17,226 nt of DNA from positions 1 to 17,226 of the forward strand of contig JBKHBH010000040.1 in assembly GCA_046542505.1 (NCBI GenBank), read 5' to 3'. The number at the start of each line of letters is the position of its first letter. The first letter of the stretch is position 1. Made by a program: the position numbers and the translations under genes. Below are positions 3,096 to 17,226 of the stretch, one piece after another. Source of the stretch: Thermovirgaceae bacterium. Lineage in GTDB: Bacteria; Synergistota; Synergistia; Synergistales; Thermovirgaceae. The notes beneath the pieces were generated by a model. The model did not search any database, was not told the DNA's origin, and saw nothing but the letters and a program-made list of their open reading frames with translations.

Positions 3096-3128
3096 GGCGC
3101 TGCTTTAGACCGACCTCATCGGATGACA

Positions 3129-4331
3129 TCACGCCTGCTCCAGCCACCTCCAGGCGAGTGCCGAAAGGAGCGTCACCCCATCGACCAGGACATCGTCATT
3201 GGTCCTGAAGACGGGGCTGTGATGCTGGGCGTCGGTCCCTTTTTCAGGGTCTCCCATCCCAAGAAAGAAAAAGGCCCCCGGAACTTTTTCCTGGTAAAAG
3301 CTGAAGTCCTCCGATCCCAGGATGATCTCCTGCTCCTCAAGGGCGTCTTCGCCCATAATGGATCCCGCCGTTTCCACAAGGAGTTCAACCATTTTCTTGT
3401 CGTTGACGGTAACTGGATATACGGGAAGGAAATTTACCCTGGTCTCGCACCTGAAAGCCGACCCGACCCCCTCGGCGATCCTCCTGATGCGTCCGGGCAT
3501 TTCGTCGCGGACAACGGGGCTCGTGGTGCGGACGTTGCCGGTAAGTTTTGCCGTTTCCGGAATGATGTTCGCCGCCGTGCCGCACTCGATCTTCCCCACG
3601 CTCAGGACCACCGCCTCCTGGGGGTCGATCTCCCGGCTCACAATCGTCTGTACCGTGGAGATGATCGTCGCGGCGGCAATGGTGGGGTCCACCGCTTCAT
3701 GGGGTCTTGAACCATGACCGCCGCGGCCCTTGACCTCGACCTCCCAGATATCCGCCGAGGCCATCACCGGTCCGACCCTGTACCCGAGCTTTCCCGTGGG
3801 AAGCTGCGCCCAGACGTGCATGCCCCATATGGCGTCAACTCCCTCAAGAACACCTTCATCTACAAGCTGCTTCGCCCCCGAGTCAAACCCGGACTCCTCG
3901 GCAGGCTGGAAGATGAGGCGCACCCTTCCGGGCAGTTCGTCCTTCAGTGCCGCCAGGACATGGGCGACGCCAAGAAGTACCGATGCATGGGCGTCATGTC
4001 CGCAGGCATGCATGACACCGGCGTTCTTAGACTTCCAAGGATTATCGATGGCCTCGTCCACGGGCAGGGCATCGATATCCCCCCTGATGGCCACCATGGG
4101 ACATTTTCCGTTGCCCCCTATGTCCGCTGCAACCCCCGAGCCGGTCCCCCTGAAACCCCGCCGGATGTTTTCGTAGCCAAGGTCTTTCAACACCGATTCG
4201 ATGATTTTCGACGTCCGCTCCTCTTTCCACGAGAGTTCCGGGTGGGCGTGGAAGTCGTGGCGGAATCCGATGACCTTCTCTTCAAGATCCTTTGCCAGGC
4301 TTCGAAATCTTTCCATATCCAAATTCATCAC
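3129..4331 (-). CDS. M20D family amidohydrolase (N-acyl-amino acid amidohydrolase / carboxypeptidase / hippuricase-like)
   Basis: RHDFHAHPELS, RGDIDALP, MHACGHDAH, FQPAEE, GMH, GRGGHGSRPH, SEDF, HHSP motifs. Start could be 4331, 4328 or 4316. Confidence 0.95.
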   Translation of the reverse strand: MMNLDMERFRSLAKDLEEKVIGFRHDFHAHPELSWKEERTSKIIESVLKDLGYENIRRGFRGTGSGVAADIGGNGKCPMVAIRGDIDALPVDEAIDNPWKSKNAGVMHACGHDAHASVLLGVAHVLAALKDELPGRVRLIFQPAEESGFDSGAKQLVDEGVLEGVDAIWGMHVWAQLPTGKLGYRVGPVMASADIWEVEVKGRGGHGSRPHEAVDPTIAAATIISTVQTIVSREIDPQEAVVLSVGKIECGTAANIIPETAKLTGNVRTTSPVVRDEMPGRIRRIAEGVGSAFRCETRVNFLPVYPVTVNDKKMVELLVETAGSIMGEDALEEQEIILGSEDFSFYQEKVPGAFFFLGMGDPEKGTDAQHHSPVFRTNDDVLVDGVTLLSALAWRWLEQA

Positions 4332-4339
4332 CCCTCAGG

Positions 4340-5524
4340 CTACATCAGGTTCACCAGGAAGCCCGCCAAAAAGACCGACGCAATGGTCACCGTGGTGAAC
4401 CCCGAGACCAGCATCTTGGGCAAGATCCCTGTGAGAACGAATTCCCGCTCTTCCGGCGTCTCCCCCAACGCCGTGGCGACCTCGTTGGAAATGATGAAGG
4501 TGGCCGGGAAGCCGAAAAGGCAGCAGACCCCGATGGCCAGGCTCATTTCCCAGGTATATTTGAAAATCTTCGCCGAAACGAGAGCCACAACGACGATGCC
4601 AACCAGCGCCACGGCGAAGGCGATCACGATGGGTCCGATCAAGGACATCACCATGTCGGGCGTAGCCTTGTTGAGGCTCATGAAGATGGGAACCAACAGG
4701 GCGAAAAGCGCCAGTCCCTCGGCGTTGGCCTTCGTCAGGATCTTGTGTTCCAGGAACCCTGCTTCGTAGAACAGGATGCCAAAGGCCAGGGCCATGACGA
4801 ACTTGTTGATCACGTCGCCCAGAAGGCCCGCTACCAACACGGCCAGCCAGCCGACCAGCATGGCCTTCATGATGAGGATAAAGGGCGTCTGGAGATCCTT
4901 CGGCGTCTCGGGAAAAATTTTCAAGGCTGGTCTTTCGTGTTCTTCTACAACCCTTTCACCCTTATTCGCCTCTGTGACTCCCTCTCCCCTGCGGAAAATC
5001 CCCCTGAGACGCCGCCCCTCCCTGGTGAGACAAACCGAGGCAATGGGCAGGCCTACGAAGTTCTGGAGCACCAGAAGGAGCGTTAAAAAGACAAGCACCG
5101 TCTCCAGCCCCTTTGCCTTGGCGGCCTCGCTCATGATGAGAGTGGCCACCACGCCCCCCGAGATCGGGCCCGCCGCGGGCACTGCAAATTCCTTGCCGAT
5201 CAGCGGCGACCCGATAATAAAGAGCGCAGCCGATGCGGCCACGATGGCGCCAAGAGCTATGAGGACCGTCTTCCACTCTTCCTTGAGGTCCCTGAGCTTC
5301 ATGAGCGTCCCCATGTGTACCATCAGCATCGGGATAAGGCCCAGTGCCACCGGGACGAGAGCCGAATCCTCGAAGAGCGTCTCGGGGATACCGAACCAGA
5401 ACCCCACCATGAAAATAATGCCCGACACAAACAGCATGGAAAAAACCGCTTTCGTCTTCTGGGCCACGAAATCGCCTACGGCGTAGACGACCGCGATGAC
5501 CAGAAGCGCCGCTACAGTACTCAT
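4340..5524 (-). CDS. Uncharacterised multi-pass membrane protein, putative amino acid/peptide transporter
   Basis: About 394 aa, two hydrophobic halves joined by a charged loop, Gly-rich GPISGG and GFP motifs. ATG at 5524 follows GGGGAGG; 8 bp from the amidohydrolase. Confidence 0.8.
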   Translation of the reverse strand: MSTVAALLVIAVVYAVGDFVAQKTKAVFSMLFVSGIIFMVGFWFGIPETLFEDSALVPVALGLIPMLMVHMGTLMKLRDLKEEWKTVLIALGAIVAASAALFIIGSPLIGKEFAVPAAGPISGGVVATLIMSEAAKAKGLETVLVFLTLLLVLQNFVGLPIASVCLTREGRRLRGIFRRGEGVTEANKGERVVEEHERPALKIFPETPKDLQTPFILIMKAMLVGWLAVLVAGLLGDVINKFVMALAFGILFYEAGFLEHKILTKANAEGLALFALLVPIFMSLNKATPDMVMSLIGPIVIAFAVALVGIVVVALVSAKIFKYTWEMSLAIGVCCLFGFPATFIISNEVATALGETPEEREFVLTGILPKMLVSGFTTVTIASVFLAGFLVNLM

Positions 5525-5562
5525 GTCCCATTCCTCCCCTGAGGAAACCACGAGATATGTAC

Positions 5563-5600
5563 AAAAAAGCCGGGGTCCCCTTCTTTTCGGGAACCCCGGC
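5563..5600 (-). terminator. Attenuator terminator hairpin (3:4)
   Basis: Minus strand GCCGGGGTTCCC-gaaaagaa-GGGGACCCCGGC-TTTTTT, about 40 nt upstream of the transporter start and downstream of a promoter. Confidence 0.9.
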
Positions 5601-5621
5601 CTCTTTTCGGCTCACGGACGC

Positions 5622-5711
5622 CTAGGCGTCGAACCGCAGAGGGGGTTCCACGCTGCCATAATAATAAAAGCAGAACCAGTTCATCGTAATGGACACGCGT
5701 GCTCTCCGCAT
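5622..5711 (-). CDS. Leader peptide MRRARVSITMNWFCFYYYGSVEPPLRFDA (29 aa)
   Basis: AAGGAGG SD (5726-5720), 8-nt spacer, ATG 5711, TAG 5624-5622; control codons TGG TTC TGC TTT TAT TAT TAT at 5678-5658. Confidence 0.85.
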   Translation of the reverse strand: MRRARVSITMNWFCFYYYGSVEPPLRFDA

Positions 5712-5745
5712 GCAGGCATCCTCCTTTTTAAAATTGTTGCTTAAT

Positions 5746-5774
5746 CTTATAGCACTTTATTCAGGAGGCGTCAA
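5746..5774 (-). promoter_or_regulatory. Sigma70-type promoter for leader-transporter-amidohydrolase operon
   Basis: TTGACG (5774-5769), 17 bp, TATAAG (5751-5746), preceded by extended -10 TG. Confidence 0.75.
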
Positions 5775-5815
5775 GAACACGAAGTTCAAGCTTTTCAGGA
5801 GCTGATTTCCCCTCA

Positions 5816-5901: not shown

Positions 5902-6456
5902 TTATTCGGGCATAAAGGGACGCACAAAGGGCGACGTTGCACCCTTGCGCATGAAATGCCCCGACGGACCTTCGCCGAGAAATTCCGAGAACCACGATTC
6001 ATGCTCGATTTCCTCGTGCAGTATCGCCTGGGCAAGGGCATAGGTCCTGTGATCCTTTCCGGCCGTCATGTTGCAAATCTCGTTGTACCCTCTTACGGCA
6101 CAACGCTCAGCCTCGACCAGGACTTCGAGGATGGCCTTCACGTCCGTCGGATCCTTCGGAAGATTGGCCGGCGGACAAGCTGACATGTCGTGAAAGGCTT
6201 TCATATCATCAGGGAGCTTCCCGCCCAGTTCGTATATCCTGGGCACCAGTGCCTCGAAATGGTTCCTGTCCTCTATGCGCGCCGCTTCAGCAATCTCCTT
6301 GATGCCCTCACCCTCAAGACCGATCAGGTTTGCCCGGAGGATCGTGTAATAGTAGAAGGTCGTCAGCTCGGCGGCCGCGTTTGCCACAAGAAGCTCCAAT
6401 AGTTCCTCAACGTTTACTCCCGCTTGCTCCACAACTTCTCTTGACACTTTTGCCAT
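5902..6456 (-). CDS. dps: DPS-like (DPSL) ferritin-family protein
   Basis: AAAELTTFYYYTILR, EDRNHFEALVPRIYELGG, SACPPA and EAERCA (paired Cys typical of DPSL/thioferritin), EEIEHE di-iron ligands; SD GGGGGAG. Confidence 0.92.
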   Translation of the reverse strand: MAKVSREVVEQAGVNVEELLELLVANAAAELTTFYYYTILRANLIGLEGEGIKEIAEAARIEDRNHFEALVPRIYELGGKLPDDMKAFHDMSACPPANLPKDPTDVKAILEVLVEAERCAVRGYNEICNMTAGKDHRTYALAQAILHEEIEHESWFSEFLGEGPSGHFMRKGATSPFVRPFMPE

Positions 6457-6749
6457 ATTCTCTCCCCCTCTTTGTCTCCCGTCCGGTATTTGCCGCTATG
6501 AATTTGTTCAAACAATATACCTGCCATGGTTTTCCGAAAACTGCAATGCGCAGAAACTGTATCACGGTTGTTCTTATTTGTAAACATTTCTGATTTAAGA
6601 GAAAAGCGGGAGAGAATTTGCGTAAGTCACTGTCATAGGATGGCAGTTAATCCTATCCGCTCTGCTGGAGCTCCCGGCGTTCATGGCACAATTTTGCCAT
6701 CCCCGGAGGAGATGTTTCCCAAAGAGGTTCGCATCGATCTTTTCCTCGC

Positions 6750-8420
6750 TCAATCAGGCGAACCCGCTTCATTGACCAGGGCTGTTACGTTGAAAAAATC
6801 GGCGCTGAGAGGCTGACGATAAACCGGCGTCCCGGGGTCTTTCCCCTCGAGAAGGGCCGCTCTGACCAGGGCGTATTCCGCCATGGCAGCACCGGAGGGC
6901 ACGGGATGGTCAAAGACTGAGGCCGGGACATGGTGAAAATCATCCGGACGGGATTCCACCCATCCTTCGGGCCCCCTGAAGGACTCCACGTAACTGGCCA
7001 AATCCACGGACACACTCCGCAGTTGCGGGTTTTCTTTCGCAAGGGTCAACACGGCCGCCAGAAGGGCCGCGGCGTCAAAGAGAAAGGATTGCTCCTGGAG
7101 TGCGCCGCGGGAAACGCAATGGGCCAGGCGCCGTCCGTCCCAGAAGACGTCCAGCAGGCGTTTTCCCATAGAATCGGCCATCTGGGAGAACGTTTTCTTT
7201 TGCAGCAGATACCCGGCCTCGGACAAGGCCATAACGGCGAGGGCATTGTTTCCGCACAGGATTTTGGTGTCTGCTTCAGGCTGGGGCCGTTCTCTCCGGG
7301 TTTCCAGGAGCTTTGCCTCAATTTCGGGCAGGTTCTCATCGACACGTTTCACCAGGTGGATCCTGCCTTCGAAGTTTCCGCCAGGTTCGATGTGATAAAC
7401 GCGCTTCAACTCGCGGAAATCCTCCCTGGAGAGGAGGCTTTCCAGCTCATCATAGCCCCACAGGTAGGTCCCGCCTTCTTCGTGTTGCGTATCGGCGTCA
7501 AAGGCAGCAAGAAACAGCCCCTCCCTTTCGAAGCATTCCCCGAGGCAGCGGGCGACGGTTTCCGCCGTTGACGCATAGGCCTCCTCTTTCAGGACGGAAG
7601 CGGCCAGGGAATAGCACCAAAGTCCCATGGCCTGGTCGTAGAGCATCTTCTCGAAATGGGGGATGTGCCACCGTTCGTCCACACAATACCGGAACAGGCC
7701 GCCCTGCAGGTGGTCATTGAGACCACCCAGCCGCATGGCATCCAGGGTCTTGCGGCACATGGCCCCGGCTGCAGGTGATTCCTCCTTCTCCAGCAAGTGC
7801 AAAAGGTACAGCAAGCTGCAATGGGGCGGGAACTTCGCACCTCTCCCGAACCCGCCTGACCGGTGGTCAAACAGCCGTTTCAGGGCCGGCAGGACCTGTT
7901 CACGCGAAACAGGGTCCGGCAAAGCCGCCGAAGGCATAAAAACCGCCGCATCAAGCTGTTCTTCCCGCCAGACCCGGTTCAGTCCTTTCGCCACATCCAG
8001 CAGGCCGGGCATTCCGCCTTCGGTCTGCGCCGGAAGGTAGGTAAAGGCAAATATCGGCTCAAGCCGTGGCGTCAGAAAAGCATTCAGCGGCCAGCCTCCA
8101 CTTCCCGTCGTGGCTGTGAGAAAGTCCATGAGATAGTGGTCGATATCGGGCCGCTCTTCCCGGTCGACCTTGACACAAACAAAATGTGAGTTTAGATACT
8201 CCGCCACGTTGTCATCGGAAAAGGCTCCCGCCGCCATGACATGACACCAGTGGCAGGTCGCGTATCCCGAGGATACGAAGATGGGAACATCACGTCTCGA
8301 GGCTTCCTCAATGATGCCCTTGCCCCATTCCTGCCACCAGACAGGATTGCCGGCGTGCTGCAAAAGGTACGGGGACCGGGCTGAATCCAGGTTGTTCCTG
8401 TCAAGACGTTCCGGTGTCAT
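6750..8420 (-). CDS. Thioredoxin-domain protein DUF255 (YyaL/SSP411-like)
   Basis: SPYLLQHAGNPVWW, CHWCHVM, KVDREERPDID, GGWPLNAFLTP, GGFGRGAKFP, PHFEKMLYDQA. Confidence 0.92.
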   Translation of the reverse strand: MTPERLDRNNLDSARSPYLLQHAGNPVWWQEWGKGIIEEASRRDVPIFVSSGYATCHWCHVMAAGAFSDDNVAEYLNSHFVCVKVDREERPDIDHYLMDFLTATTGSGGWPLNAFLTPRLEPIFAFTYLPAQTEGGMPGLLDVAKGLNRVWREEQLDAAVFMPSAALPDPVSREQVLPALKRLFDHRSGGFGRGAKFPPHCSLLYLLHLLEKEESPAAGAMCRKTLDAMRLGGLNDHLQGGLFRYCVDERWHIPHFEKMLYDQAMGLWCYSLAASVLKEEAYASTAETVARCLGECFEREGLFLAAFDADTQHEEGGTYLWGYDELESLLSREDFRELKRVYHIEPGGNFEGRIHLVKRVDENLPEIEAKLLETRRERPQPEADTKILCGNNALAVMALSEAGYLLQKKTFSQMADSMGKRLLDVFWDGRRLAHCVSRGALQEQSFLFDAAALLAAVLTLAKENPQLRSVSVDLASYVESFRGPEGWVESRPDDFHHVPASVFDHPVPSGAAMAEYALVRAALLEGKDPGTPVYRQPLSADFFNVTALVNEAGSPD

Positions 8421-9166
8421 CCGGCGTGTTTGACCTTTCCCACGGCTGCCATGTAAACGACAAACTCCTCTCCGCCGTCGACTCCCAGCAACTTGTCAGC
8501 CTCGTCCTGATCGTAGGCGGCGATGGCGCAGGCGCCTGCCGAGATGGCCTCGCAGGCCAGGTAAAGGTTCTGGCAGACATGTCCCGCATCAAGGGCGATC
8601 ACCTTGTAGGAGGCGTCGCCATAGCGCCACTCCATGCGGTACGGGACAGCCGTCCAGAAAAAGGTCACGGCTCCGGCACCGGCGAAGGCCTGACCCAGTG
8701 CCGCCCTGGCCGTCAGGGATTCCACGGCTTCAGGCCTGGAGACCGCCACGAGGGCGTGTTCAGTGGGAAGATACCGGTAAATCCCTTTTGAAAGACCCGG
8801 GACCCTGAAAAGGGCAAGATACGTCTCAAGGGCATGACGGCACCCGGCTGAGGGAACCACACGTTTGGCGTGCCCTCCTTCGGGCTTTTCCTTCATCCCC
8901 TGGGTCGCCCACAGGAGAAAGGAAAGCTCCTCCACAGAAAGAGGGTCCCAGTTGTAGTTCCTTCGGGAAGCCCTGTTCTGGATAGCATCCCAAAGTAGTA
9001 CCCCGCCTGGATCTTCCGGCTGCGGCAATGTTATCCGTTCGCAATCCTCCGGGCAGGGTTTGTAAACCGGAGGGGGTTTCACTCCCCGGTACTGGTCCGT
9101 TTCGGAAAAATCCACCTCTTTACGTATCGAATCCTTGAGAAAATACCGTCCTTCTTCCTTCATCAC
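8417..9166 (-). CDS. SagB/ThcOx family nitroreductase-fold flavoprotein
   Basis: RASRRNY, LSFLLWATQG, RVVPSAGCRHALETY, WRYG, LDAGHVCQNLYLACEA; ATGA overlap with the DUF255 gene. Confidence 0.92.
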   Translation of the reverse strand: MMKEEGRYFLKDSIRKEVDFSETDQYRGVKPPPVYKPCPEDCERITLPQPEDPGGVLLWDAIQNRASRRNYNWDPLSVEELSFLLWATQGMKEKPEGGHAKRVVPSAGCRHALETYLALFRVPGLSKGIYRYLPTEHALVAVSRPEAVESLTARAALGQAFAGAGAVTFFWTAVPYRMEWRYGDASYKVIALDAGHVCQNLYLACEAISAGACAIAAYDQDEADKLLGVDGGEEFVVYMAAVGKVKHAG

Positions 9167-9213
9167 GCAACACTCCCGGACTTAAAAGAATCTTGTTCAC
9201 TTTCGCCGGTTAC

Positions 9214-10629
9214 TCACTCGTCTGCAAGGAACCTGGGGCCGTGAGGCACGTTGCAGGCATGGCAGCGTTTCGTGTACCCCGCGGCGCTGTATCCCGTCAT
9301 CCCGCCGGCAACGTTGAAAAGCTTGGAAAAACCTTTTTGCTTCAGGATGGAGGCGGCGATGCTGCCCCGGTTTCCAGAACTGCAGATCACCACGACAGAT
9401 TTTTGGCGATCGAGCTCTTCATGACGAGACCTCAGCTCGTCAACGGGAATGTTGAGGGCACCTTCTATGTGATTGTCGTCGAATTCCGCCGGGGCACGCA
9501 CATCGAGCAAGATGAACTTTTCGGCGTCGGTGATCATGCCATGCAATCCCCCAGCCGAAAGGAGAGGGACGTTGCCTGTTGAAAAGCCCGCCGTGACCCA
9601 GGCCGGCATTCCCCCGGCGAGTATCCCTGTGATGCGGTCCACTCCAACCCTCCGGGCTCCGGTGACGGCCTTTTCGGCCTCCTCCGGCCCACTGTCGACG
9701 AGCAGGATATCCTTGTCCACCGGGAGGACCCAGCCGGCAAAAGTGGGGAAATTCCCGTTCAGGTCAAGATTCCACGATCCAGAAACATGATGGCCCGAAA
9801 AGGCATCGTAGGTTCTCACGTCGAGGATTTCCACATCCTTCGCTCGTTCCCGGAAGGCTGCCGGGTCCAGCTCCTCAGGCACGGGAAGTTTCGAAAGCAG
9901 CTCCGGCCCCTGCCGGTTGATCTCGGTACACCGCGAAAAGTGATCCGGAGCCGGCGGCATGTCGTTTGTAAGAGAATGGATAAATTCCTCCTTGTCCTCA
10001 ATATTGAGGGCGGGGTTGAAAAGCCGCTCGTACCCTATGGTGCTGGTCCGCTTGGCCGCCATGGAACGGCCGCACAGGGAACCCGCTCCATGTGCGGGAT
10101 ACACCTCGCAGTGATCGGGCAAAGACAGCAGTTTGTCGTGGAGGCTGTGATACAGTTTCCCCGCCAGGTCTTCCGCCTTGCCGGGGAAAAGATCGGGCCT
10201 TCCCACGTCACCCACGAAAAGGGTATCCCCGGTGAAAACCGCCACGGGACTGTCGCTCCTTGCAAGATCTTTCACGACGTAGGCCACATGCTCGGGTGTA
10301 TGGCCCGGCGTCTCCACGACTTCAAGAAGGAGGTTCTCGATCTCCACCGTGTCTTTTTCCGAAAGAGGGACGTGGTCGAAGACGCACTCGGCCGACCTGG
10401 GAACATGGATCTTCGCACCCGTCACCGCCGCAAGGTCCATGTGGCCGGAGACAAAGTCGGCATGCAGGTGGGTCTGAAAAATGTGAGTGATAGCCACCCC
10501 CATAGCCTGTGCCTCATCCAGATAAACCTGGATGTCTCGCCTCGGGTCGATCACTGCGCATGACGATTTCACTGCAAGAATATACGAACTGTGGGCAATC
10601 TTTTCCGTGAAAATCTGTCTGAGGAGCAT
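9214..10629 (-). CDS. MBL-fold hydrolase / persulfide dioxygenase-like protein fused to rhodanese domains (CstB/Blh-like)
   Basis: THLHADFVSGH, TPGHTPEH, FTGDTLFVGDVGRPDL, PAHGAGSLCG; two rhodanese domains, the C-terminal one with CSSGNRG; AGGAGG SD. Confidence 0.92.
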   Translation of the reverse strand: MLLRQIFTEKIAHSSYILAVKSSCAVIDPRRDIQVYLDEAQAMGVAITHIFQTHLHADFVSGHMDLAAVTGAKIHVPRSAECVFDHVPLSEKDTVEIENLLLEVVETPGHTPEHVAYVVKDLARSDSPVAVFTGDTLFVGDVGRPDLFPGKAEDLAGKLYHSLHDKLLSLPDHCEVYPAHGAGSLCGRSMAAKRTSTIGYERLFNPALNIEDKEEFIHSLTNDMPPAPDHFSRCTEINRQGPELLSKLPVPEELDPAAFRERAKDVEILDVRTYDAFSGHHVSGSWNLDLNGNFPTFAGWVLPVDKDILLVDSGPEEAEKAVTGARRVGVDRITGILAGGMPAWVTAGFSTGNVPLLSAGGLHGMITDAEKFILLDVRAPAEFDDNHIEGALNIPVDELRSRHEELDRQKSVVVICSSGNRGSIAASILKQKGFSKLFNVAGGMTGYSAAGYTKRCHACNVPHGPRFLADE

Positions 10630-10863: not shown

Positions 10864-12021
10864 TCACCATGCATTTCTGTAGATGCCTTCGATTTCCTCG
10901 ATGCCCAACTGCCTGGGGTTTTTGGAAAGAAGCCGCGTTTCGTTGACGGCGGATTCCGCCATCGTTGTCGTTGCGTCTTCGGGGACATCCACATCCCTGA
11001 GCCTTGCGGGAAGCCCCAGGTCCTCGATTAGTTCAAGCACCGCCTGAACGGAACTCCCGGCTGCTTCCCTGAGAGAAAGGTGCTCCACAGGCTCCCCCAG
11101 AGCTTCCGCGATGTCGGCATATTTTTCGAGCTCGCTCATCGCGTTGGCTTCCATGACGTAGGGCAGCATAAGGCTGTTGACGAGGCCGTGGGGCAAGTGG
11201 AACCGCCCGCCCAAGGTCAAGCTCAGGCCGTGGACCGCACCAAGGCCTGCGTTGGCAAAGGCCAAGCCCGCCTCGAGGCTGGCCAGTGACATGTAATACC
11301 GGCTTTCTTTGTTTTCCCCGTCAGCGACGGCCTTTCTCAAATACCGTGCGATCAGCCTGATCGCCGAAATCGACAGCTCTTCCGTAAAGGCGTTGGAACC
11401 GCGGGACACGTAGGACTCGATGGCGTGGACAAGGGCGTCCATGCCTGTTATCGCAGTGATCCCTGGAGGCATGGAGGAGGTAAAGGACGGATCGATCATG
11501 GCGAGGGAAGCTAGCATGTGGGGACTGACAATGCCCTTTTTCACGCCCCCCTCTTCCCCGATGCCGAAAACCCCGATGCGGGTGACTTCCGACCCCGTCC
11601 CGGCCGTCGTCGGGAGCATAATCGTGGGCAAACCCGGCTTGGGGACCTGGTTGACGCCTACAAGGCTTTTTGCCGGCACGTCGTTTTTCACAAGAAGGGC
11701 CGCCACCTTGGTGACATCCATTGAACTTCCGCCCCCGAGACCGATCAGGACATCCCAAGAACCATCCTTGACCCGGGAGGCCACCTGCTCTGTCAGTTCA
11801 AGGGGCGGTTCCGGCTCCACGGCATCGAAAAAGCCCGGATCCAGGCCGGCTTGATCCAGAACATCAAGGACCTGCTGCAGTATTCCGGCCTTGACGATTC
11901 CCGGGTCGGTGATAACAAAGGGACGTGAGCATCCCAGATCTTCTATTTGCCCGGGCAGTTCCCGGTATATGCCCTCGCCCAGCAAAAGAGCCGGCGGCGA
12001 ATAAAAGGCAATCTGTTTCAT
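10864..12021 (-). CDS. Iron-containing alcohol dehydrogenase
   Basis: GLGGGSSMD, PTTAGTGSEVT, GMDALVHAIESY, AVHG...HLPHG metal ligands. Confidence 0.93.
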   Translation of the reverse strand: MKQIAFYSPPALLLGEGIYRELPGQIEDLGCSRPFVITDPGIVKAGILQQVLDVLDQAGLDPGFFDAVEPEPPLELTEQVASRVKDGSWDVLIGLGGGSSMDVTKVAALLVKNDVPAKSLVGVNQVPKPGLPTIMLPTTAGTGSEVTRIGVFGIGEEGGVKKGIVSPHMLASLAMIDPSFTSSMPPGITAITGMDALVHAIESYVSRGSNAFTEELSISAIRLIARYLRKAVADGENKESRYYMSLASLEAGLAFANAGLGAVHGLSLTLGGRFHLPHGLVNSLMLPYVMEANAMSELEKYADIAEALGEPVEHLSLREAAGSSVQAVLELIEDLGLPARLRDVDVPEDATTTMAESAVNETRLLSKNPRQLGIEEIEGIYRNAW

Positions 12022-12044
12022 CCCGGACTGACACCTCCAATGGG

Positions 12045-13073
12045 CTACTTGAGATTTTCGCTCAGAACCGCCGGATCATACCGGTCGGCCAGCGCACAGC
12101 AGGCGAGAAGGGCTTCTGTCATGCTGACAGGGTTGGCGAGACCCTTCCAGGCGATGTCAAAGGCAGTGCCGTGATCCACCGAGGTCCGGATAAAGGGAAG
12201 GCCGAGGGTGACGCTGACGGTCCGGTAAAAATCATGGGTTTTTGCGGCGATGTGTCCCTGGTCATGATACAGCGAAATCACGCCGTCGAACTTCCCCTCC
12301 AAGGCCATATGAAAGACGCTGTCCGCAGGAACAGGTCCGGTGACATCTATCCCCGCATCTTGCGCCTGCTCGACACCCGGTATCAAAAACCGCGCTTCCT
12401 CGTCACCAAAAAGACCGCCGTCAGAGGCGTGCGGGTTGAGGGCCGCCAGGGCGAGTCTGCGGTCTTCAATTCCCAAAGACACCAGACAGCGGTCGGCGAG
12501 CCTGATGGACCGGACGATCCCCTCGACGGAGAGCCCCTCGATCATGGATTTGAGCGATTCGTGCCTGCTGTGGAAAAATATGCGCATGGCATCGACTAAA
12601 TACATGGTCACGCTTTCCCGGCTTTCGGAGAGTTTCGCAAGCATCTCCGTGTGCCCGATGTAGTGGTATCCCGCCTTCTTGAGAGCCTCCTTGTTGATGG
12701 GCGCCGTAGCGATTCCCTTGATCAGGCCCCTGAGTGCCAGGTCAACGCTTTTTGCGATGCATTCCACCGCGGTATGACCGCCGAGGGCTGAAATCCGGCC
12801 GATATCCAGATCCTGAATGTTCCCGACAATCCCGACGTCCAGCACCGGGATGGACGAAGGGCTTCTCTCGATTTTGCCCCGGCCGAGATCCACGGGCTGG
12901 AGGGAAGCAGACAGTTTCAGTCTCCTCTTGACGGCTTCAAGCACCTTCAGGTCTCCCACGAGAAGGTACTGTCCGCATTTCCAGATACCTTCGGATTCAA
13001 GGCTCTGCAACACAATCTCAGGCCCCACCCCGGCGGGGTCTCCCATCGTTACGGCTATTGGCATTTGACTCAT
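12045..13073 (-). CDS. pdxA: PdxA2-type 4-phosphothreonate / 4-hydroxythreonine-4-phosphate dehydrogenase
   Basis: TMGDPAGVGPE, TAPINKE, GHTE, LNPHA, YHDQGHI, RTSVDHGTAFDIAWKG; ATG at 13073 overlaps the kinase stop (ATGA) and follows AGGAGG. Confidence 0.93.
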   Translation of the reverse strand: MSQMPIAVTMGDPAGVGPEIVLQSLESEGIWKCGQYLLVGDLKVLEAVKRRLKLSASLQPVDLGRGKIERSPSSIPVLDVGIVGNIQDLDIGRISALGGHTAVECIAKSVDLALRGLIKGIATAPINKEALKKAGYHYIGHTEMLAKLSESRESVTMYLVDAMRIFFHSRHESLKSMIEGLSVEGIVRSIRLADRCLVSLGIEDRRLALAALNPHASDGGLFGDEEARFLIPGVEQAQDAGIDVTGPVPADSVFHMALEGKFDGVISLYHDQGHIAAKTHDFYRTVSVTLGLPFIRTSVDHGTAFDIAWKGLANPVSMTEALLACCALADRYDPAVLSENLK

Positions 13074-14299
13074 TCCGCATCCTCCTGTCGCAACCACTGG
13101 AGTGCCTTGTACAGGCCATCCCGGCCGCCTATGAGACCTCCTTTTGTGACTACCTTCAGCCCGTCTCGGGAAGTCCCCTTGATCCGGCCCCCCATCATCA
13201 ACGGAGCGAGTTCGGCGACGGGTTCAAGAAAATCGGCTCCCAGTCGGTCCAGAACACTCATCGCCGTATCCCCGCCGGAGAGAATGAGGCCGCACAAATT
13301 ACCATCCAGCGCCTGCATGACGATGGCACCGACTTCGGCGATCTGCCTCACAACTTCCTCCTCCCTGCCGTGGAGGACGGGCCCCTCCGGTTGAATAACC
13401 AGGCAGTCCGTCTTTTCTCGCTGCATCTGCCCGAGAAAGGCCCTGCAGTCCTGCATGACGACTGCGGTGTCCTGTCCGGGGGCAAACCGGTAAGGGGAAA
13501 CATTGAGCTTGCCTCCCAGGTATCCAAGCTGTTCCCTGGTCACATTGGAGGTACTGCCGATAAGGGCCAGGGCCATTTTCCTCTGCCCCGGAGCCAGGGT
13601 GTGGTAAAGGTACGCGGCGGTGAAGGGTCCGGGATCAACGGGGATAAACGAAACGGCAAGGGTTGCGGCGGCCTCGGCGATCGCCTCGATATCGCTGTCG
13701 CTTTGCGCGTCGGCAATGATGACCCGGCTTTCTTCCGCTTTTTGCCCGAGATCCCCGGCGATCTCCGCCATCCCTCCTTTTATCGTCTCAATAGAAATGC
13801 GGGATACCGGAAAGGAGCCCTCGAAATACCGGGGAACATAGCTCGTCGAAATGGGCCAGACAGGGTCATTCGCCACCTCGGTCCGTTCGAGGAGGGAACC
13901 GTTGAGCAGCTGGTAGCCCCCGACAGTGGTTCTCCCCGATGCGGGATAGGCCGGAACGACCAGGGCGACAGACTCGGGACGGTGTGCGAGAAGGCAGGCC
14001 GTCTCCACCAGGAGGTGGCCCCTGAGTGTGGTGTCGATGCGTTTCGCAAGTTGCCGGCCGGACCCGGCCCGCGCAACAAGGGTGTCCATCCGGGACCTTG
14101 CTCTTTCGGTTTCGATGGCCCGAGTGTTGAGGTTCACCACCAGCAGTTGGGACGGTTCCGGTTGTCCCGCGCCCTTCTTGCATTTCCAGTTCACCTGCAG
14201 CGTCGGTGAAAATCCTCTGGCTTTCAGCAGGATGGACTGTACCGAAGAGCCGGTGAGATCATCGCAAAAAACGGTAAAACCTGTTTCCCCTTGTCCCAT
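13070..14299 (-). CDS. Four-carbon acid sugar kinase (DUF1537, DtnK/DenK-like)
   Basis: DDLTG, KRIDTTLRG, PAYPASGRTTVGG, SGGDTA, TKGG; start taken as ATG 14299 after AGGTG; adjacent to pdxA2. Confidence 0.9.
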   Translation of the reverse strand: MGQGETGFTVFCDDLTGSSVQSILLKARGFSPTLQVNWKCKKGAGQPEPSQLLVVNLNTRAIETERARSRMDTLVARAGSGRQLAKRIDTTLRGHLLVETACLLAHRPESVALVVPAYPASGRTTVGGYQLLNGSLLERTEVANDPVWPISTSYVPRYFEGSFPVSRISIETIKGGMAEIAGDLGQKAEESRVIIADAQSDSDIEAIAEAAATLAVSFIPVDPGPFTAAYLYHTLAPGQRKMALALIGSTSNVTREQLGYLGGKLNVSPYRFAPGQDTAVVMQDCRAFLGQMQREKTDCLVIQPEGPVLHGREEEVVRQIAEVGAIVMQALDGNLCGLILSGGDTAMSVLDRLGADFLEPVAELAPLMMGGRIKGTSRDGLKVVTKGGLIGGRDGLYKALQWLRQEDAE

Positions 14300-14333
14300 T
14301 ATCTGATCACCTGTGTTTTTGCCCATCCAGATC

Positions 14334-14379
14334 GGTGAAAGACCGGGGTGGGAGATAAAACCCACCCCGGTCTTTCACC
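14334..14379. repeat. Perfect 19-bp inverted repeat; intercistronic stem-loop
   Basis: GGTGAAAGACCGGGGTGGG-agataaaa-CCCACCCCGGTCTTTCACC between dctP and the kinase. Confidence 0.85.
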
Positions 14380-14409
14380 CAGTGTCGCTCTTTTTTACCC
14401 CGTTCAGCC

Positions 14410-15456
14410 TTACAGACGCGGCCAGACAGCGTGGATATTTTCCTTGAAGTTGTTGTAAGACTCGATCACTTCTTTGGTAAATTCATCTTTTTCAGCTTCC
14501 TCGGCATAATACTTTTCGGCCTCTTCCATGAACGCATCCTCGATGGCTTTCGGGAGGGGGTGAATTTCAAGGCCCTCGTCACGGAATTTTTCCAGGGCCT
14601 CCAGGTCCGCCTCTATGGCCTTGGCGTAATAGGTATAGGCTTCTTCCTTCCATGCCGCCTCGATGATGTTTTGCAGGTCTTCGGGCAGTTCATCCCATAC
14701 TTTCTTGTTGAAGAAGTAGGGGTTCCATTCATAAGGGTGACGCACGGGGGAAAGGTAAATGTACTTGCCCGCTTCCTGCATTCCCATAGTCCAGTTGACG
14801 GCCGGGCTCGCAACTTCATAGGCGTCAATGACGCCACGATGCATGGCTTCGAAAACCTCGCCCACGGGCATGAGGGAACAGGCTGCGCCCATTCTGTCAA
14901 GGATTTCCGCGCCATCACCGGCTGAACGTATCCTCAGTCCCTCCAGGTCGGCAGGGGTTTCCAGGGGTTTGTTCGTGACCAAAAATACTTCCGGCGGAGC
15001 CAGCTGGCCCGCCCCGTTAATGATTTTTACGTTGTAATCCTTGAGCATCTTCTGGACGAGCTCGTTGCCTCCTCCTTCAAGCATCCAGACCATGGTCTCG
15101 CTGGGCGACATCCCGCCCGGTTTTGCGGTCAGTATTCCCGCTGCCGGCCACCTGTCCTTGTAGTACATGTAACAGGTATCGGCGAAGTCCAGGACCCCCC
15201 GGTGGACGCCGTCAAGCTCCTTGGTGGCCGGATAAATGGCGCCTGCCGGCTGCACGTTGAGTTTCAGCCTTCCGCCGCTGGCCGCCTCGGCTCTCTTGCA
15301 CGCCCTTACCAGAGACTCGTACATCACGTTTCCTGCCGGCATGCGCGACTGCCCCGTCAACTCGTAGACCTTTTCCTGTGCGCCGGCCACACCGGCGGCA
15401 AGCATGAGGGCAATCAGACACGCAACGGACATGAATAACCAGAATCTCCTTCTCAT
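14410..15456 (-). CDS. dctP: TRAP transporter substrate-binding protein
   Basis: Signal peptide MRRRFWLF...AGA-Q; NKPLETPADLEGLRIR (conserved Arg), EVFEAMHRGVIDA, WDELPEDLQ; GGGGAGG SD. Confidence 0.93.
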   Translation of the reverse strand: MRRRFWLFMSVACLIALMLAAGVAGAQEKVYELTGQSRMPAGNVMYESLVRACKRAEAASGGRLKLNVQPAGAIYPATKELDGVHRGVLDFADTCYMYYKDRWPAAGILTAKPGGMSPSETMVWMLEGGGNELVQKMLKDYNVKIINGAGQLAPPEVFLVTNKPLETPADLEGLRIRSAGDGAEILDRMGAACSLMPVGEVFEAMHRGVIDAYEVASPAVNWTMGMQEAGKYIYLSPVRHPYEWNPYFFNKKVWDELPEDLQNIIEAAWKEEAYTYYAKAIEADLEALEKFRDEGLEIHPLPKAIEDAFMEEAEKYYAEEAEKDEFTKEVIESYNNFKENIHAVWPRL

Positions 15457-15559
15457 TTTTGACTACCTCCCCTGTTTTGTTTCTCAGTCCGGGTTCTCTT
15501 CGGCCTTATTTGCCTAATGGCACCACCTCCGCTCCTTTCCGGATCAAAAACTCAGACTA

Positions 15560-16894
15560 TCACGCCATCTTCGAGGGCAGCCACAGGATGATCTGTGGAA
15601 AGGCAATGCATAGCGCCAGACAAATCACTATCAATATGATGAAAGGGATTACCCCGCGTATGATGTCCGTGGTCTCTATCCCCAGCCCCTTTGGCGCCGT
15701 GCCTTTCAGGAAGAATATGGCGTACGCGAAGGGCGGCGTCAAAAAGGACATCTGCAGGTTGATGCATATCATCAGGGCGAACCAGATGGGGTTGAATCCC
15801 ATCTCCACCGCCAGAGGGGTCACGATGGGAACAAAAAGCAGGACGATGCCGATCCAGTCGATAAACATCCCGAGGAAAAAGGCGATCACCATGATGATGG
15901 CGAAGGCCCCCCACCGCCCGCCCGGGGCGGCAAGGATGATGTCCCCGACAACCCCGCCGCACCCGGCCCGAAGAAACACGCCCACATAGGCGGTAGCCAT
16001 GGCGAGGATAAGATACACCATCCCGCTGAGCCGAATGGTGTCAACGGCTGCCCCCTTCAGTACTTCCCAGCTGAACTTGCGGTAGAGAATAGCCAGGGCC
16101 GTAGCGGCGAAAGCGCCCACGGCCGCCGCTTCAGTCGGGGCAGCGATACCGAAGAAAATGCTTCCCAGGACCGAAACGATGAGGATCACCGGGGGAAGCA
16201 GCGAGACGAAAAGCATGGAAAGCTTCCTCGAAAGGGGTATACCCTGAATTTCTTCCGGCGGTACAGCCGGGCCGGCATCCTTTTTGATCAGGCAATAGAT
16301 CACGATATATGCACAATACAAGAGAGAAAGCAGAAAACCCGGAAGAAAAGCCCCGAAGAAAAGCCGCCCCACGGAGACACCGGCAGCCGGACCGTACACC
16401 ACCAGCATGATGCTGGGCGGAATGAGGATGCCCAGCGTCCCGCCGGCGCAGACGGTGCCGCATGCCAGCGACTTGTCGTACCCGCGGGTGATCATGGGGC
16501 TAAGGGCAAGCAGGCTCAGGCAGGTGACGGAAGCCGCTATGACGCCCACGCAGGCCGCCAGAATCGTCCCGATCAGGATCGTGGCGATGGCCAGTCCTCC
16601 GCGCAACCTTCCAAGCCAGACGTACAGGGCTTCGAAAAGGGTTTCCGTGATCCCGGACCGTTCGAGCATGTTGCCCATGAAGGCAAAAAGCGGCACGGCC
16701 AACAGTGTGTAGTTCGTCAGCTGCGCGAATATGCGTCCGTAATAGAGTTCAAGGGTGCTTGGAAAGCCGAAAATCAGAGATCCTATGGCAAGTCCCATGG
16801 TCCCGATTCCCAGCGCGAAAGGGAAGCCGGTCAACACAGCCACAAAAACGCCGCCGAGCATTAAGACCGTCGCGAGTTCAGGCGTGATTGTCAT
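15560..16894 (-). CDS. dctM: TRAP transporter large permease
   Basis: LLAVPLF, GGTLGILIPPSI, TPPF motifs; highly hydrophobic; ATG 16894 overlaps the end of dctQ. Confidence 0.95.
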   Translation of the reverse strand: MTITPELATVLMLGGVFVAVLTGFPFALGIGTMGLAIGSLIFGFPSTLELYYGRIFAQLTNYTLLAVPLFAFMGNMLERSGITETLFEALYVWLGRLRGGLAIATILIGTILAACVGVIAASVTCLSLLALSPMITRGYDKSLACGTVCAGGTLGILIPPSIMLVVYGPAAGVSVGRLFFGAFLPGFLLSLLYCAYIVIYCLIKKDAGPAVPPEEIQGIPLSRKLSMLFVSLLPPVILIVSVLGSIFFGIAAPTEAAAVGAFAATALAILYRKFSWEVLKGAAVDTIRLSGMVYLILAMATAYVGVFLRAGCGGVVGDIILAAPGGRWGAFAIIMVIAFFLGMFIDWIGIVLLFVPIVTPLAVEMGFNPIWFALMICINLQMSFLTPPFAYAIFFLKGTAPKGLGIETTDIIRGVIPFIILIVICLALCIAFPQIILWLPSKMA

Positions 16895-17226
16895 AAGGCT
16901 CACCCTTTACGGCAAAATAGACGTCACGGATAAAAATCGCTGTTCCCTGAAGGAAAAAAAGCAAGAATCCCAAGAACAGGAGTATTCTCAAGGGGTACAG
17001 GGGTGGATAGATATAGGTTGCGGCGGATTTTTCATTGATGGAAATCGAAAAGAGCATCCAATCCCAGGAGGCTTTGACCAGACAACCGATCAGGGGGAAG
17101 AAGAACACCAGGGCACAAATGGAGTCCACCGTCGCTTTTGCCCGGTCGGACAGTCGATAGTAGAAAATATCCACGCGGGTATGGGCCTGGTGAAGGTGGA
17201 CGTATCCCCAGGAGAGGGCGTACATT
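16878..17226 (-). CDS. dctQ: TRAP transporter small permease (5' end outside window)
   Basis: HTRVDIFY motif and hydrophobic helices, directly upstream of dctM. Confidence 0.9.
   Translation of the reverse strand, partial: MYALSWGYVHLHQAHTRVDIFYYRLSDRAKATVDSICALVFFFPLIGCLVKASWDWMLFSISINEKSAATYIYPPLYPLRILLFLGFLLFFLQGTAIFIRDVYFAVKGEPYDNHA

Follow-up and report, generated by a model that had tools for sequence, protein, structure and literature searches.

A putative transporter and M20D amidohydrolase operon behind an aromatic-codon leader in Thermovirgaceae, a candidate module for the salvage of amide-conjugated aromatic amino acids

Introduction

Salvage modules that couple a transporter to a hydrolase, and attenuators based on leader peptides, are both already known kinds of system. 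In Escherichia coli, AbgT together with AbgA/AbgB carries out the uptake of p-aminobenzoyl-glutamate and its hydrolysis by an M20D enzyme, and the enterobacterial trp, pheA and pheST operons have leader-peptide attenuators. Here we describe an operon located in a stretch of 17,226 nucleotides (nt) from a Thermovirgaceae bacterium of the phylum Synergistota (contig JBKHBH010000040.1 of assembly GCA_046542505.1; the whole stretch is hereafter called the window), in which the genes of a membrane protein and of an M20D amidohydrolase lie behind a short leader open reading frame (ORF) rich in codons for aromatic amino acids. As in the AbgT-AbgA/AbgB system, there is genetic coupling between a secondary transporter and a cytoplasmic M20D enzyme, which would free an amino acid from an imported amide conjugate, but the window transporter does not belong to the AbgT family, because no Pfam model matches it, control would be exerted by a leader-peptide attenuator and the product would be an aromatic amino acid. 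The leader resembles those of trp, pheA and pheST in having a short ORF in which regulatory codons form a run, and a terminator that competes with an antiterminator, while it differs from them in that the run mixes Trp, Phe and Tyr codons, the genes behind it would serve uptake and salvage in Synergistota, and the whole cassette with its promoter occurs twice, each copy before a different target.

In Clostridioides difficile, a lysine riboswitch lies ahead of yfcC, coding for a putative transporter, and an M20D amidohydrolase gene, as given in a passage of PMC11477304. Judged by that passage, the two operons have in common an RNA leader that senses, or in the window would sense, an amino acid and that stands over an uncharacterised transporter and an M20D gene; unlike the C. 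difficile operon, with its YfcC family protein, riboswitch and free lysine, the window operon has a transporter of another family, a translated leader ORF and another amino acid. An M20D peptidase is also named in a table row of PMC7438776, and the passages retrieved from PMC9413887 concern HisR and were set aside as not relevant. In the literature covered, most subscription journals and supplements excepted, no report was found of the transporter family, nor of aromatic leader peptides in Synergistota.

From the analyses presented below, we lean, by a modest degree, towards the view that starvation induces the operon and that its products take up amide conjugates of aromatic amino acids and hydrolyse them.

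Results

Organization of the operon

The preliminary description of this DNA placed two co-oriented genes 8 bp apart behind a leader with Trp, Phe, Cys and Tyr codons. In agreement with this, both genes are on the minus strand and are separated by 8 nt (4332-4339), or by 11 nt if the M20D gene starts at the ATG at 4328, and a promoter, a leader ORF and a terminator were found ahead of them. The features are as follows (aa, amino acids).

5524-4340, minus strand: membrane protein gene, ATG start, 394 aa, stop codon at 4342-4340
4331-3129, minus strand: M20D amidohydrolase gene, GTG start, 400 aa
5774-5769 and 5751-5746, minus strand: -35 and -10 hexamers, promoter-like, with a 17-nt spacer, kept in a paralogous cassette and two relatives
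5724-5720, minus strand: Shine-Dalgarno site of the leader
5711-5622, minus strand: leader ORF, 29 codons plus stop
5678-5658, minus strand: control codons 12-18 of the leader (one Trp, two Phe, one Cys, three Tyr)
5649-5590, minus strand: antiterminator, in which the 5' arm 5649-5638 (within the leader ORF) pairs with 5604-5590
5603-5563, minus strand: intrinsic terminator, stem 5603-5589 with 5580-5566, T-tract 5568-5563
5537-5533, minus strand: the transporter's own Shine-Dalgarno site

Within the antiterminator, a nested hairpin extends across the stop codon of the leader. A consensus promoter scan passed over the pair at 5774-5746 because its -10 hexamer ends in G. The gene before the leader on the minus strand is a ferritin/Dps-like ORF (5902-6456) that ends in a hairpin of its own. 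To judge from sequence comparison, the transporter-M20D arrangement is more than chance, because the two genes are found together in other phyla as well and compensatory changes are seen in further copies of the leader. The genome holding the window comprises 2.14 Mb in 142 contigs with 55% GC, and the closest public relatives of the window are Thermovirgaceae/Synergistaceae metagenome-assembled genomes (MAGs) and one complete isolate genome (locus L002), whose operon has 93% identity to that of the window. DNA datasets containing positions 3100-5800 are microbial-mat and hypersaline-lake metagenomes, one of which may be the dataset from which the window came.

The leader as a putative attenuator

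Folding of the window leader yielded a terminator of 15-18 bp, and when the 3' arm of the terminator was withheld, an alternative helix formed between 5649-5638 and 5604-5590 (-33.8 to -37 kcal/mol). Across 21 homologous leaders, the antiterminator comprises 23 pairs, of which 8 have changed on both sides, with 89.1% of cells paired, and the terminator comprises 15 pairs, of which 6 have changed on both sides, with 97.1% of cells paired. The two structures are mutually exclusive and have alignment columns 87-101, the 5' arm of the terminator, in common. For each helix, none of 500 shuffles reached the observed percentage of paired cells or the observed covariation score, and the signal collapsed when the helix was slid by 1-3 columns; these controls make the case look somewhat too strong, since the 21 leaders are kin and one of them supplied the structure. 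The homologous leaders retain the aromatic run through synonymous and Phe/Tyr exchanges. The possibility that the small ORF is a chance frame was rejected, given its recurrence with a Shine-Dalgarno site, the synonymous changes inside the run and the existence of three architectures. When Rfam models, T-box and known riboswitches included, were used as queries, no match at the gathering score was obtained in the window and none in 19 related genome loci. With a Shine-Dalgarno site, a 29-codon ORF carrying six aromatic codons at positions 12-18, and competing helices conserved with compensatory changes, the leader is a credible classical attenuator, as had been proposed, and its response would be to tRNA charging.

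A leader of this composition might instead code for a TnaC-like nascent peptide that arrests the ribosome on a free aromatic ligand, and in that case it would sense abundance and the operon would be catabolic or detoxifying. The C-terminal part of the leader peptide, including Pro-Pro, is highly conserved as peptide across genera, and Synergistota ferment amino acids, both of which would suit such a sensor. However, the conserved C-terminal codons coincide with the 5' arm of the antiterminator and the nested hairpin, an overlap that explains their conservation at the RNA level, and the Phe and Tyr codons interchange freely in the run, as expected for sensing of tRNA charging. Moreover, the aromatic-rich leader that precedes a biosynthetic aro operon in the same genome (see below) makes sense only under starvation control. 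We regard abundance sensing as very improbable and continue with attenuation in response to starvation.

The amidohydrolase

Curated models identify the product of the downstream gene as a full-length M20D protein. It scored 156.6 bits against PF01546 (cut-off 24.6; Peptidase_M20, E 1e-45), 44.8 bits against the dimerisation domain M20_dimer, PF07687 (cut-off 21), and 374.8 bits against the 'amidohydrolases' subfamily model TIGR01891 (cut-off 153.75). Cys-Gly-His, which we take to be the metal-ligand motif, is found at residues 110-112, so that the M20D assignment and the CGH motif given in the preliminary description are both borne out. The solved relatives retrieved with phmmer include Bacillus subtilis YxeP (1ysj, 6e-83) and Arabidopsis ILL2 (1xmb, 4e-82), as well as a staphylococcal M20 protein and the N-acyl-glutamine aminoacylase of Corynebacterium (6slf), and a PDB chain titled 'aminobenzoyl-glutamate utilization protein' matched at 7.5e-36. 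YxeP, ILL2, the N-acyl-glutamine aminoacylase and the archaeal CpsA model have the full-length M20D architecture in common with the window hydrolase, which scores under the equivalog cut-off of the CpsA model. On these matches, the hydrolase is a bona fide M20D enzyme. Four further M20D paralogues, with 38-50% identity, are encoded in the genome; the membrane protein is single-copy.

Family and predicted fold of the membrane protein

The membrane protein had been described as belonging to no family that could be named. Consistent with this, it gave no match at E<=1 against Pfam and NCBIfam, 47 diverse members of its family gave no meaningful match against Pfam, and a profile of the family compared with PDB sequences returned chance-level rows only (E >= 0.08). 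The protein had also been called an orphan, and in the sense of rare this did not hold: an exhaustive search showed that the family spans at least 848 clusters at 50% identity (E<=1e-3), with 206 at E<=1e-30. A word-indexed search returned 526 relatives, every one of them labelled 'hypothetical' or 'membrane protein'. Named sources of homologues are Aminobacterium, Acetomicrobium, Pyramidobacter, Treponemataceae, Clostridiisalibacter, Gudongella and Fusobacterium.

An AlphaFold2 (AF2) model built from a 47-sequence alignment reached a predicted local distance difference test score (pLDDT) of 90.5 and a predicted template modelling score (pTM) of 0.84. With VIA-align, the model was superposed on AspT, the aspartate:alanine antiporter (8y1x_B), with Z 23.8 and a root-mean-square deviation of 3.6 over 349 of the 394 residues, on CitS and OadB with Z 16.9 each, and on Na+/H+ antiporters with Z 9-13, and Foldseek matched it with CitS (5a1s, 5xar) at E 5e-5 and a template modelling score of 0.54-0.60. 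The structure search that had been proposed for this protein therefore predicts an elevator-type, two-repeat secondary transporter fold, which it would have in common with its best matches AspT (AAE family), CitS (2HCT family) and OadB. In size it is similar to the short AAE and GltS (ESS family) proteins of Synergistota, and unlike AspT (543 residues) it is without central soluble domains.

At the sequence level the link to AAE/GltS is weak. Comparison by hhalign with 16 GltS proteins gave a weak match, with a probability of 30% (E 5.4e-4, 325 columns in register), that with 11 short (~385 aa) AAE proteins of Synergistota, a small template alignment from one phylum, gave 1.5%, and the control comparison of AAE with GltS gave 3.5%. 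The ESM Atlas automatically names neighbouring clusters 'Na+/glutamate symporter family', with no Pfam family on any of them. In the profile alignment, the invariant residues G123, G338 and P340 fall in two segments aligned on Gly-rich segments of GltS, which we assume to be re-entrant loops. The membrane protein appears to act like an elevator-type secondary carrier, yet it is filed outside AAE and AbgT and, provisionally, outside 2HCT and ESS.

Several assignments were rejected. Membership of Asp-Al_Ex (PF06826) was discarded on the lack of a Pfam match in the window protein or 46 relatives and on the hhalign value of 1.5%, and AbgT was discarded since the membrane protein matched no Pfam family at all at E<=1. 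An aromatic permease of the HAAAP/APC type was set aside because none is among the listed fold matches, all of which are elevator- or CPA-type, an argument from absence in these lists only. For Glt_symporter (PF03616) and 2HCT (PF03390), the window protein and its relatives gave no Pfam match, beside the weak profile match to GltS and the fold match to CitS described above.

As a separate observation, proteins of ~385 aa with two Asp-Al_Ex repeats and without a central soluble domain are common in Synergistota, scoring above the cut-off in 15 of the 61 genomes searched.

Conserved pairing with amide hydrolases

The association of the transporter with hydrolases was determined in two sets of loci. 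The genome set comprises 21 loci with a transporter homologue from Synergistota, Bacillota and Fusobacteriota, including near-duplicates and partial loci (L003 equals L002 upstream; L006, L008 and L009 are partial). An amide hydrolase is near the transporter homologue in all 21. The M20D gene starts within 49 nt downstream of the transporter in 13 of them and 1.3-1.7 kb downstream in five, where the intervening gene codes for another Peptidase_M20 protein in both cases checked; two loci have Amidohydro_1 downstream and one has M20D just upstream. The metagenome set, found with a 10-sequence transporter alignment as the query, comprises 80 loci, of which 68 could be assessed, the other 12 having less than 400 nt downstream. 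In 53 of these 68, a hydrolase starts within 91 nt downstream of the transporter, and the neighbours are distributed as follows.

M20D downstream: 29/68
Amidohydro_1 (PF01979, ~396 aa) downstream: 19/68
Amidohydro_1 followed by M20D: 5/68
no hydrolase in the downstream flank: 15/68, one of them with M20D upstream

The transporter and the amidohydrolase are accordingly a conserved pair, which supports the module proposed in the preliminary description. Two unrelated superfamilies of metallo-amidohydrolases occupy the same slot, and this is the strongest argument that the transported molecule has an amide bond to be cleaved.

The transporter might nevertheless import free aromatic amino acids, the M20D enzyme being a separate cytoplasmic peptidase or deacylase that is co-regulated and acts on internal substrates. 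AspT, the closest fold match, exchanges free aspartate and alanine according to its PDB title, the best, albeit weak, profile match is to GltS, by family name a glutamate symporter, and both the names given by the ESM Atlas and the 15 of 68 assessable metagenome loci without an adjacent hydrolase would agree with such a role. It is harder to reconcile with the tight pairing with hydrolases across phyla, in which gaps are mostly below 50 nt, and with the replacement of M20D by the non-homologous Amidohydro_1, both of which would be puzzling if no amide bond had to be cleaved in the transported molecule. Uptake of free amino acids is, in our judgement, quite unlikely, and import of an amide conjugate is the function that we retain.

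Related aromatic leaders in the same genome and family

When short ORFs containing aromatic runs were sought throughout the genome, a paralogous leader was detected on contig C30. The features concerned, together with a third leader, are the following.

L022:5455-5705 (contig C30), minus strand: paralogous promoter-leader-terminator cassette, with the same promoter, frame and terminator as in the window
L022:4183-5445, minus strand: gene of a PaaK-like phenylacetate-CoA (aryl-acetate-CoA) ligase, downstream of the paralogous cassette
L163:7900-8250 (contig C49, ~28900-29250), plus strand: third aromatic-rich leader, 53 codons, with its own promoter and terminator

The cassette has a mean column identity of 84% over ~250 nt among four copies, and the PaaK-like ligase scores 491-496 bits, under the PaaK equivalog cut-offs. 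We searched 19 genomes of the window's taxonomic family (7 genera) with a covariance model of the cassette, taking scores above 60 bits as strong matches. Seventeen were obtained, of which 11 lie ahead of PaaK-like genes (in all 7 genera), 4 lie ahead of the transporter, all in the window's genus, and 2 have no assigned target, owing to a contig end or an unclear ORF. As the PaaK-like gene is a target in seven genera and the transporter in one, it seems that the cassette served the PaaK-like gene first and that a copy of the whole regulatory cassette was acquired by the transporter operon within the window's genus. In 16 of the 17 leaders, Phe, Tyr or Trp is specified by five to six of the eight codons that precede the conserved Val-Gly/Glu-Pro-Pro, as counted by eye, like all aromatic-codon counts in leaders given here; the leader left out of the count is L031, which has the same printed peptide as L030. 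A Trp codon is present in the run of all four transporter-linked leaders, as compared with 1 of the 11 PaaK-linked ones.

The 53-codon leader, rich in Phe, Tyr and Trp codons and unrelated to that of the window, precedes a DAHP synthase-TyrA-AroA-AroE-AroC-AroK/AroB operon. The genome also contains an IorA gene scoring above its cut-off, and in anaerobes AMP-forming aryl-acetate ligases and indolepyruvate:ferredoxin oxidoreductase make aromatic amino acids from aryl acetates. The aromatic meaning initially read from the window leader is thus backed independently by aromatic-codon leaders before the PaaK-like gene and the aro operon of the same genome. The most economical account is that the transporter operon, the aro operon and the aryl-acetate ligase form one starvation regulon run by leader peptides in this genome.

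Control signals across the transporter family

Leaders were surveyed in the 73 of 80 metagenome loci with upstream sequence, by means of a crude scan in which a short ORF had to lie ahead of a terminator. Four types were distinguished, given here with the identity of the transporter to the window protein.

Type A, 93% identity, one metagenome locus: the window's own type
Type B, 82-83%, four loci, also L004, L005, L062 and L063: Phe/Tyr/Trp run, unrelated architecture, two tandem terminators
Type C, 77-81%, four loci: long Phe run ending in Trp-Tyr
Type D, 59-62%, six loci (L088, L090, L091, L092, L094 and L119; upstream of the match at ~1640-2001): mainly Ile/Val, with Tyr

Types A, B and C precede orthologous operons of transporter and M20D. 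The type D leaders have a downstream arm as in the window's class, and their operon has the order transporter-Amidohydro_1-M20D. In a quick maximum-likelihood tree of 84 transporters, with support from the Shimodaira-Hasegawa-like approximate likelihood ratio test (SH-aLRT), the members of each signal type group as one clade. A fork of 14 rows (SH-aLRT 83) contains types A, B and C and lies within a clade of 23 rows (98), and type D makes up a clade of its own (100). Control signals thus do track transporter subclades, as a survey proposed in the preliminary description was meant to reveal, a pattern that denotes clustering and not co-evolution because kin share labels.

Two further arrangements were observed. 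Ahead of a 39% paralogue in a sister genus (L066, G016:C27:4594-5781, minus strand) lie a leader ORF, which contains Ile, Cys, Phe and Met codons, and a terminator, and the paralogue is followed by an M20D gene 52% identical to that of the window; the cassette model matches its leader at 32.7 bits, and it is a single example. Upstream of a transporter homologue in a Bacillota MAG, a sub-threshold Guanidine-I/ykkC-like match (L010:3734-3833, plus strand; 43.2 bits against a threshold of 63, E 1.6e-4) may correspond to a ykkC variant subtype, and a second Bacillota locus, L012, looks like L010 at this match.

Several observations weigh against the reading of the window operon as a starvation-induced module for aromatic conjugates. 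At the control position of type D leaders, Ile and Val codons outnumber aromatic ones. Immediately ahead of a 46% homologue that has Amidohydro_1 downstream is a T-box (L108:1669-1912, plus strand, 104.8 bits), and the specifier of this T-box is a Leu codon as read from the Rfam alignment alone; the upstream region of L112 looks identical to that of L108. Several close orthologues, those of a nine-row clade that holds L007 (a Synergistaceae MAG) and, in addition, L064/L076, gave no leader in the crude scan. Given that the signals differ between clades, the family, and possibly the window protein too, may accept hydrophobic residues broadly. Within the leader, an upstream 1:2 (anti-antiterminator) hairpin was seen in the window's own fold only. 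CpsA (NF040868, 412.5 vs 500 bits) and DoeB2 (NF038260, 340.8 vs 550 bits) are the nearest curated equivalogs of the hydrolase, which falls short of both cut-offs, and therefore its sequence gives no specificity and neither orthology nor a substrate can be transferred to it. Since genes for chorismate synthase, prephenate dehydratase/chorismate mutase and TyrA, as well as TrpA/B-like genes, are present in the genome, scavenging would be supplementary and not obligatory. Finally, no RNA dataset was listed as containing positions 3100-5800 of the window.

Such signals could also be explained if the operon served a broad salvage of hydrophobic amino-acid conjugates, with the leader reporting which amino acids are limiting in a lineage and not the class of the substrate. 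That clades of one family differ in their signal (aromatic, Ile/Val/Tyr or Leu T-box) and that some orthologues are without a leader would follow from this explanation, and characterised M20D aminoacylases and carboxypeptidases tend towards broad specificity. In contrast, all three independent leader architectures in the window's clade are aromatic, and the Trp codon gained in the transporter-linked leaders looks like tuning to all three aromatic amino acids. We consider broad salvage by the window operon unlikely, and the most economical account is that the window's clade is tuned, at least in regulation, to the need for aromatic amino acids, while the probable substrates of the transporter family at large are conjugates of hydrophobic amino acids. 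The suggestion that the leader assigns a substrate class to the transporter consequently stands as a label for the window's clade, with its three aromatic leader types, and fails for the whole family, in which Ile/Val/Tyr leaders, a Leu T-box and clades without a recognisable leader occur.

Other genes in the window

On the minus strand, positions 5902-10629 hold a run of redox/stress-type genes coding for the ferritin/Dps-like protein, a DUF255 thioredoxin-domain protein, a nitroreductase and a metallo-beta-lactamase-fold protein fused to rhodanese domains. Positions 10864-17225, also on the minus strand, hold the TRAP transporter genes DctQ, DctM and DctP, and genes for an SBD_N/NBD_C two-domain kinase-like protein, a PdxA-family dehydrogenase and an iron-type alcohol dehydrogenase; this cluster presumably resembles acid-sugar (threonate/erythronate-type) catabolic clusters.

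Discussion

The preferred reading, that of a starvation-induced module for amide conjugates of aromatic amino acids, implies a sequence of events in which we infer the induction by starvation, the direction of transport and the identity of the substrate. Transcription would start near 5770-5746 and would as a rule end at the terminator (5603-5563). A shortage of charged tRNA for Tyr, Phe or Trp would make the ribosome on the leader stall in codons 12-18 and leave the arm 5649-5638 free to pair with 5604-5590, so that the antiterminator would replace the terminator and the polymerase would read into both genes, while a ribosome that reaches the leader stop codon would sit inside the antiterminator. 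The 394-aa transporter would then import an amide-linked aromatic conjugate, for example an N-acyl-L-amino acid or a short aromatic peptide, and the cytoplasmic M20D enzyme would cleave it to release free Tyr, Phe or Trp. The preliminary description had proposed import and cleavage of this kind; the module, the fold and the aromatic control logic agree with it, and the substrate and its cleavage are its conjectural part.

A wider proposal, which we put forward tentatively and would not be surprised to see fail, concerns the family to which the transporter belongs. It may represent an uncatalogued elevator-type family of at least 848 clusters, found in anaerobic Synergistota, Bacillota, Fusobacteriota and others, that is dedicated to the import of amide-conjugated hydrophobic amino acids and is almost always tied to a cytoplasmic hydrolase of one of two unrelated superfamilies. 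The specificities of its subfamilies (aromatic; Ile/Val/Tyr; Leu) might be readable from leader codons or T-box specifiers, and the window's genus would have copied the cassette of the PaaK-like gene and added a Trp codon.

What is new here is a sizeable transporter family for which there is neither a curated model nor a characterised member, a regulatory 'label' from which a testable hypothesis on its substrate follows, and evidence for a leader-peptide-run aromatic starvation regulon in Synergistota that would comprise the aro operon, the aryl-acetate ligase and the uptake-hydrolysis module. If these conclusions are borne out, an annotation would become available for hundreds of 'hypothetical membrane proteins' from anaerobic digester, gut and mat communities, and N-acyl or peptide-bound aromatic amino acids would be indicated as nutrients exchanged there.

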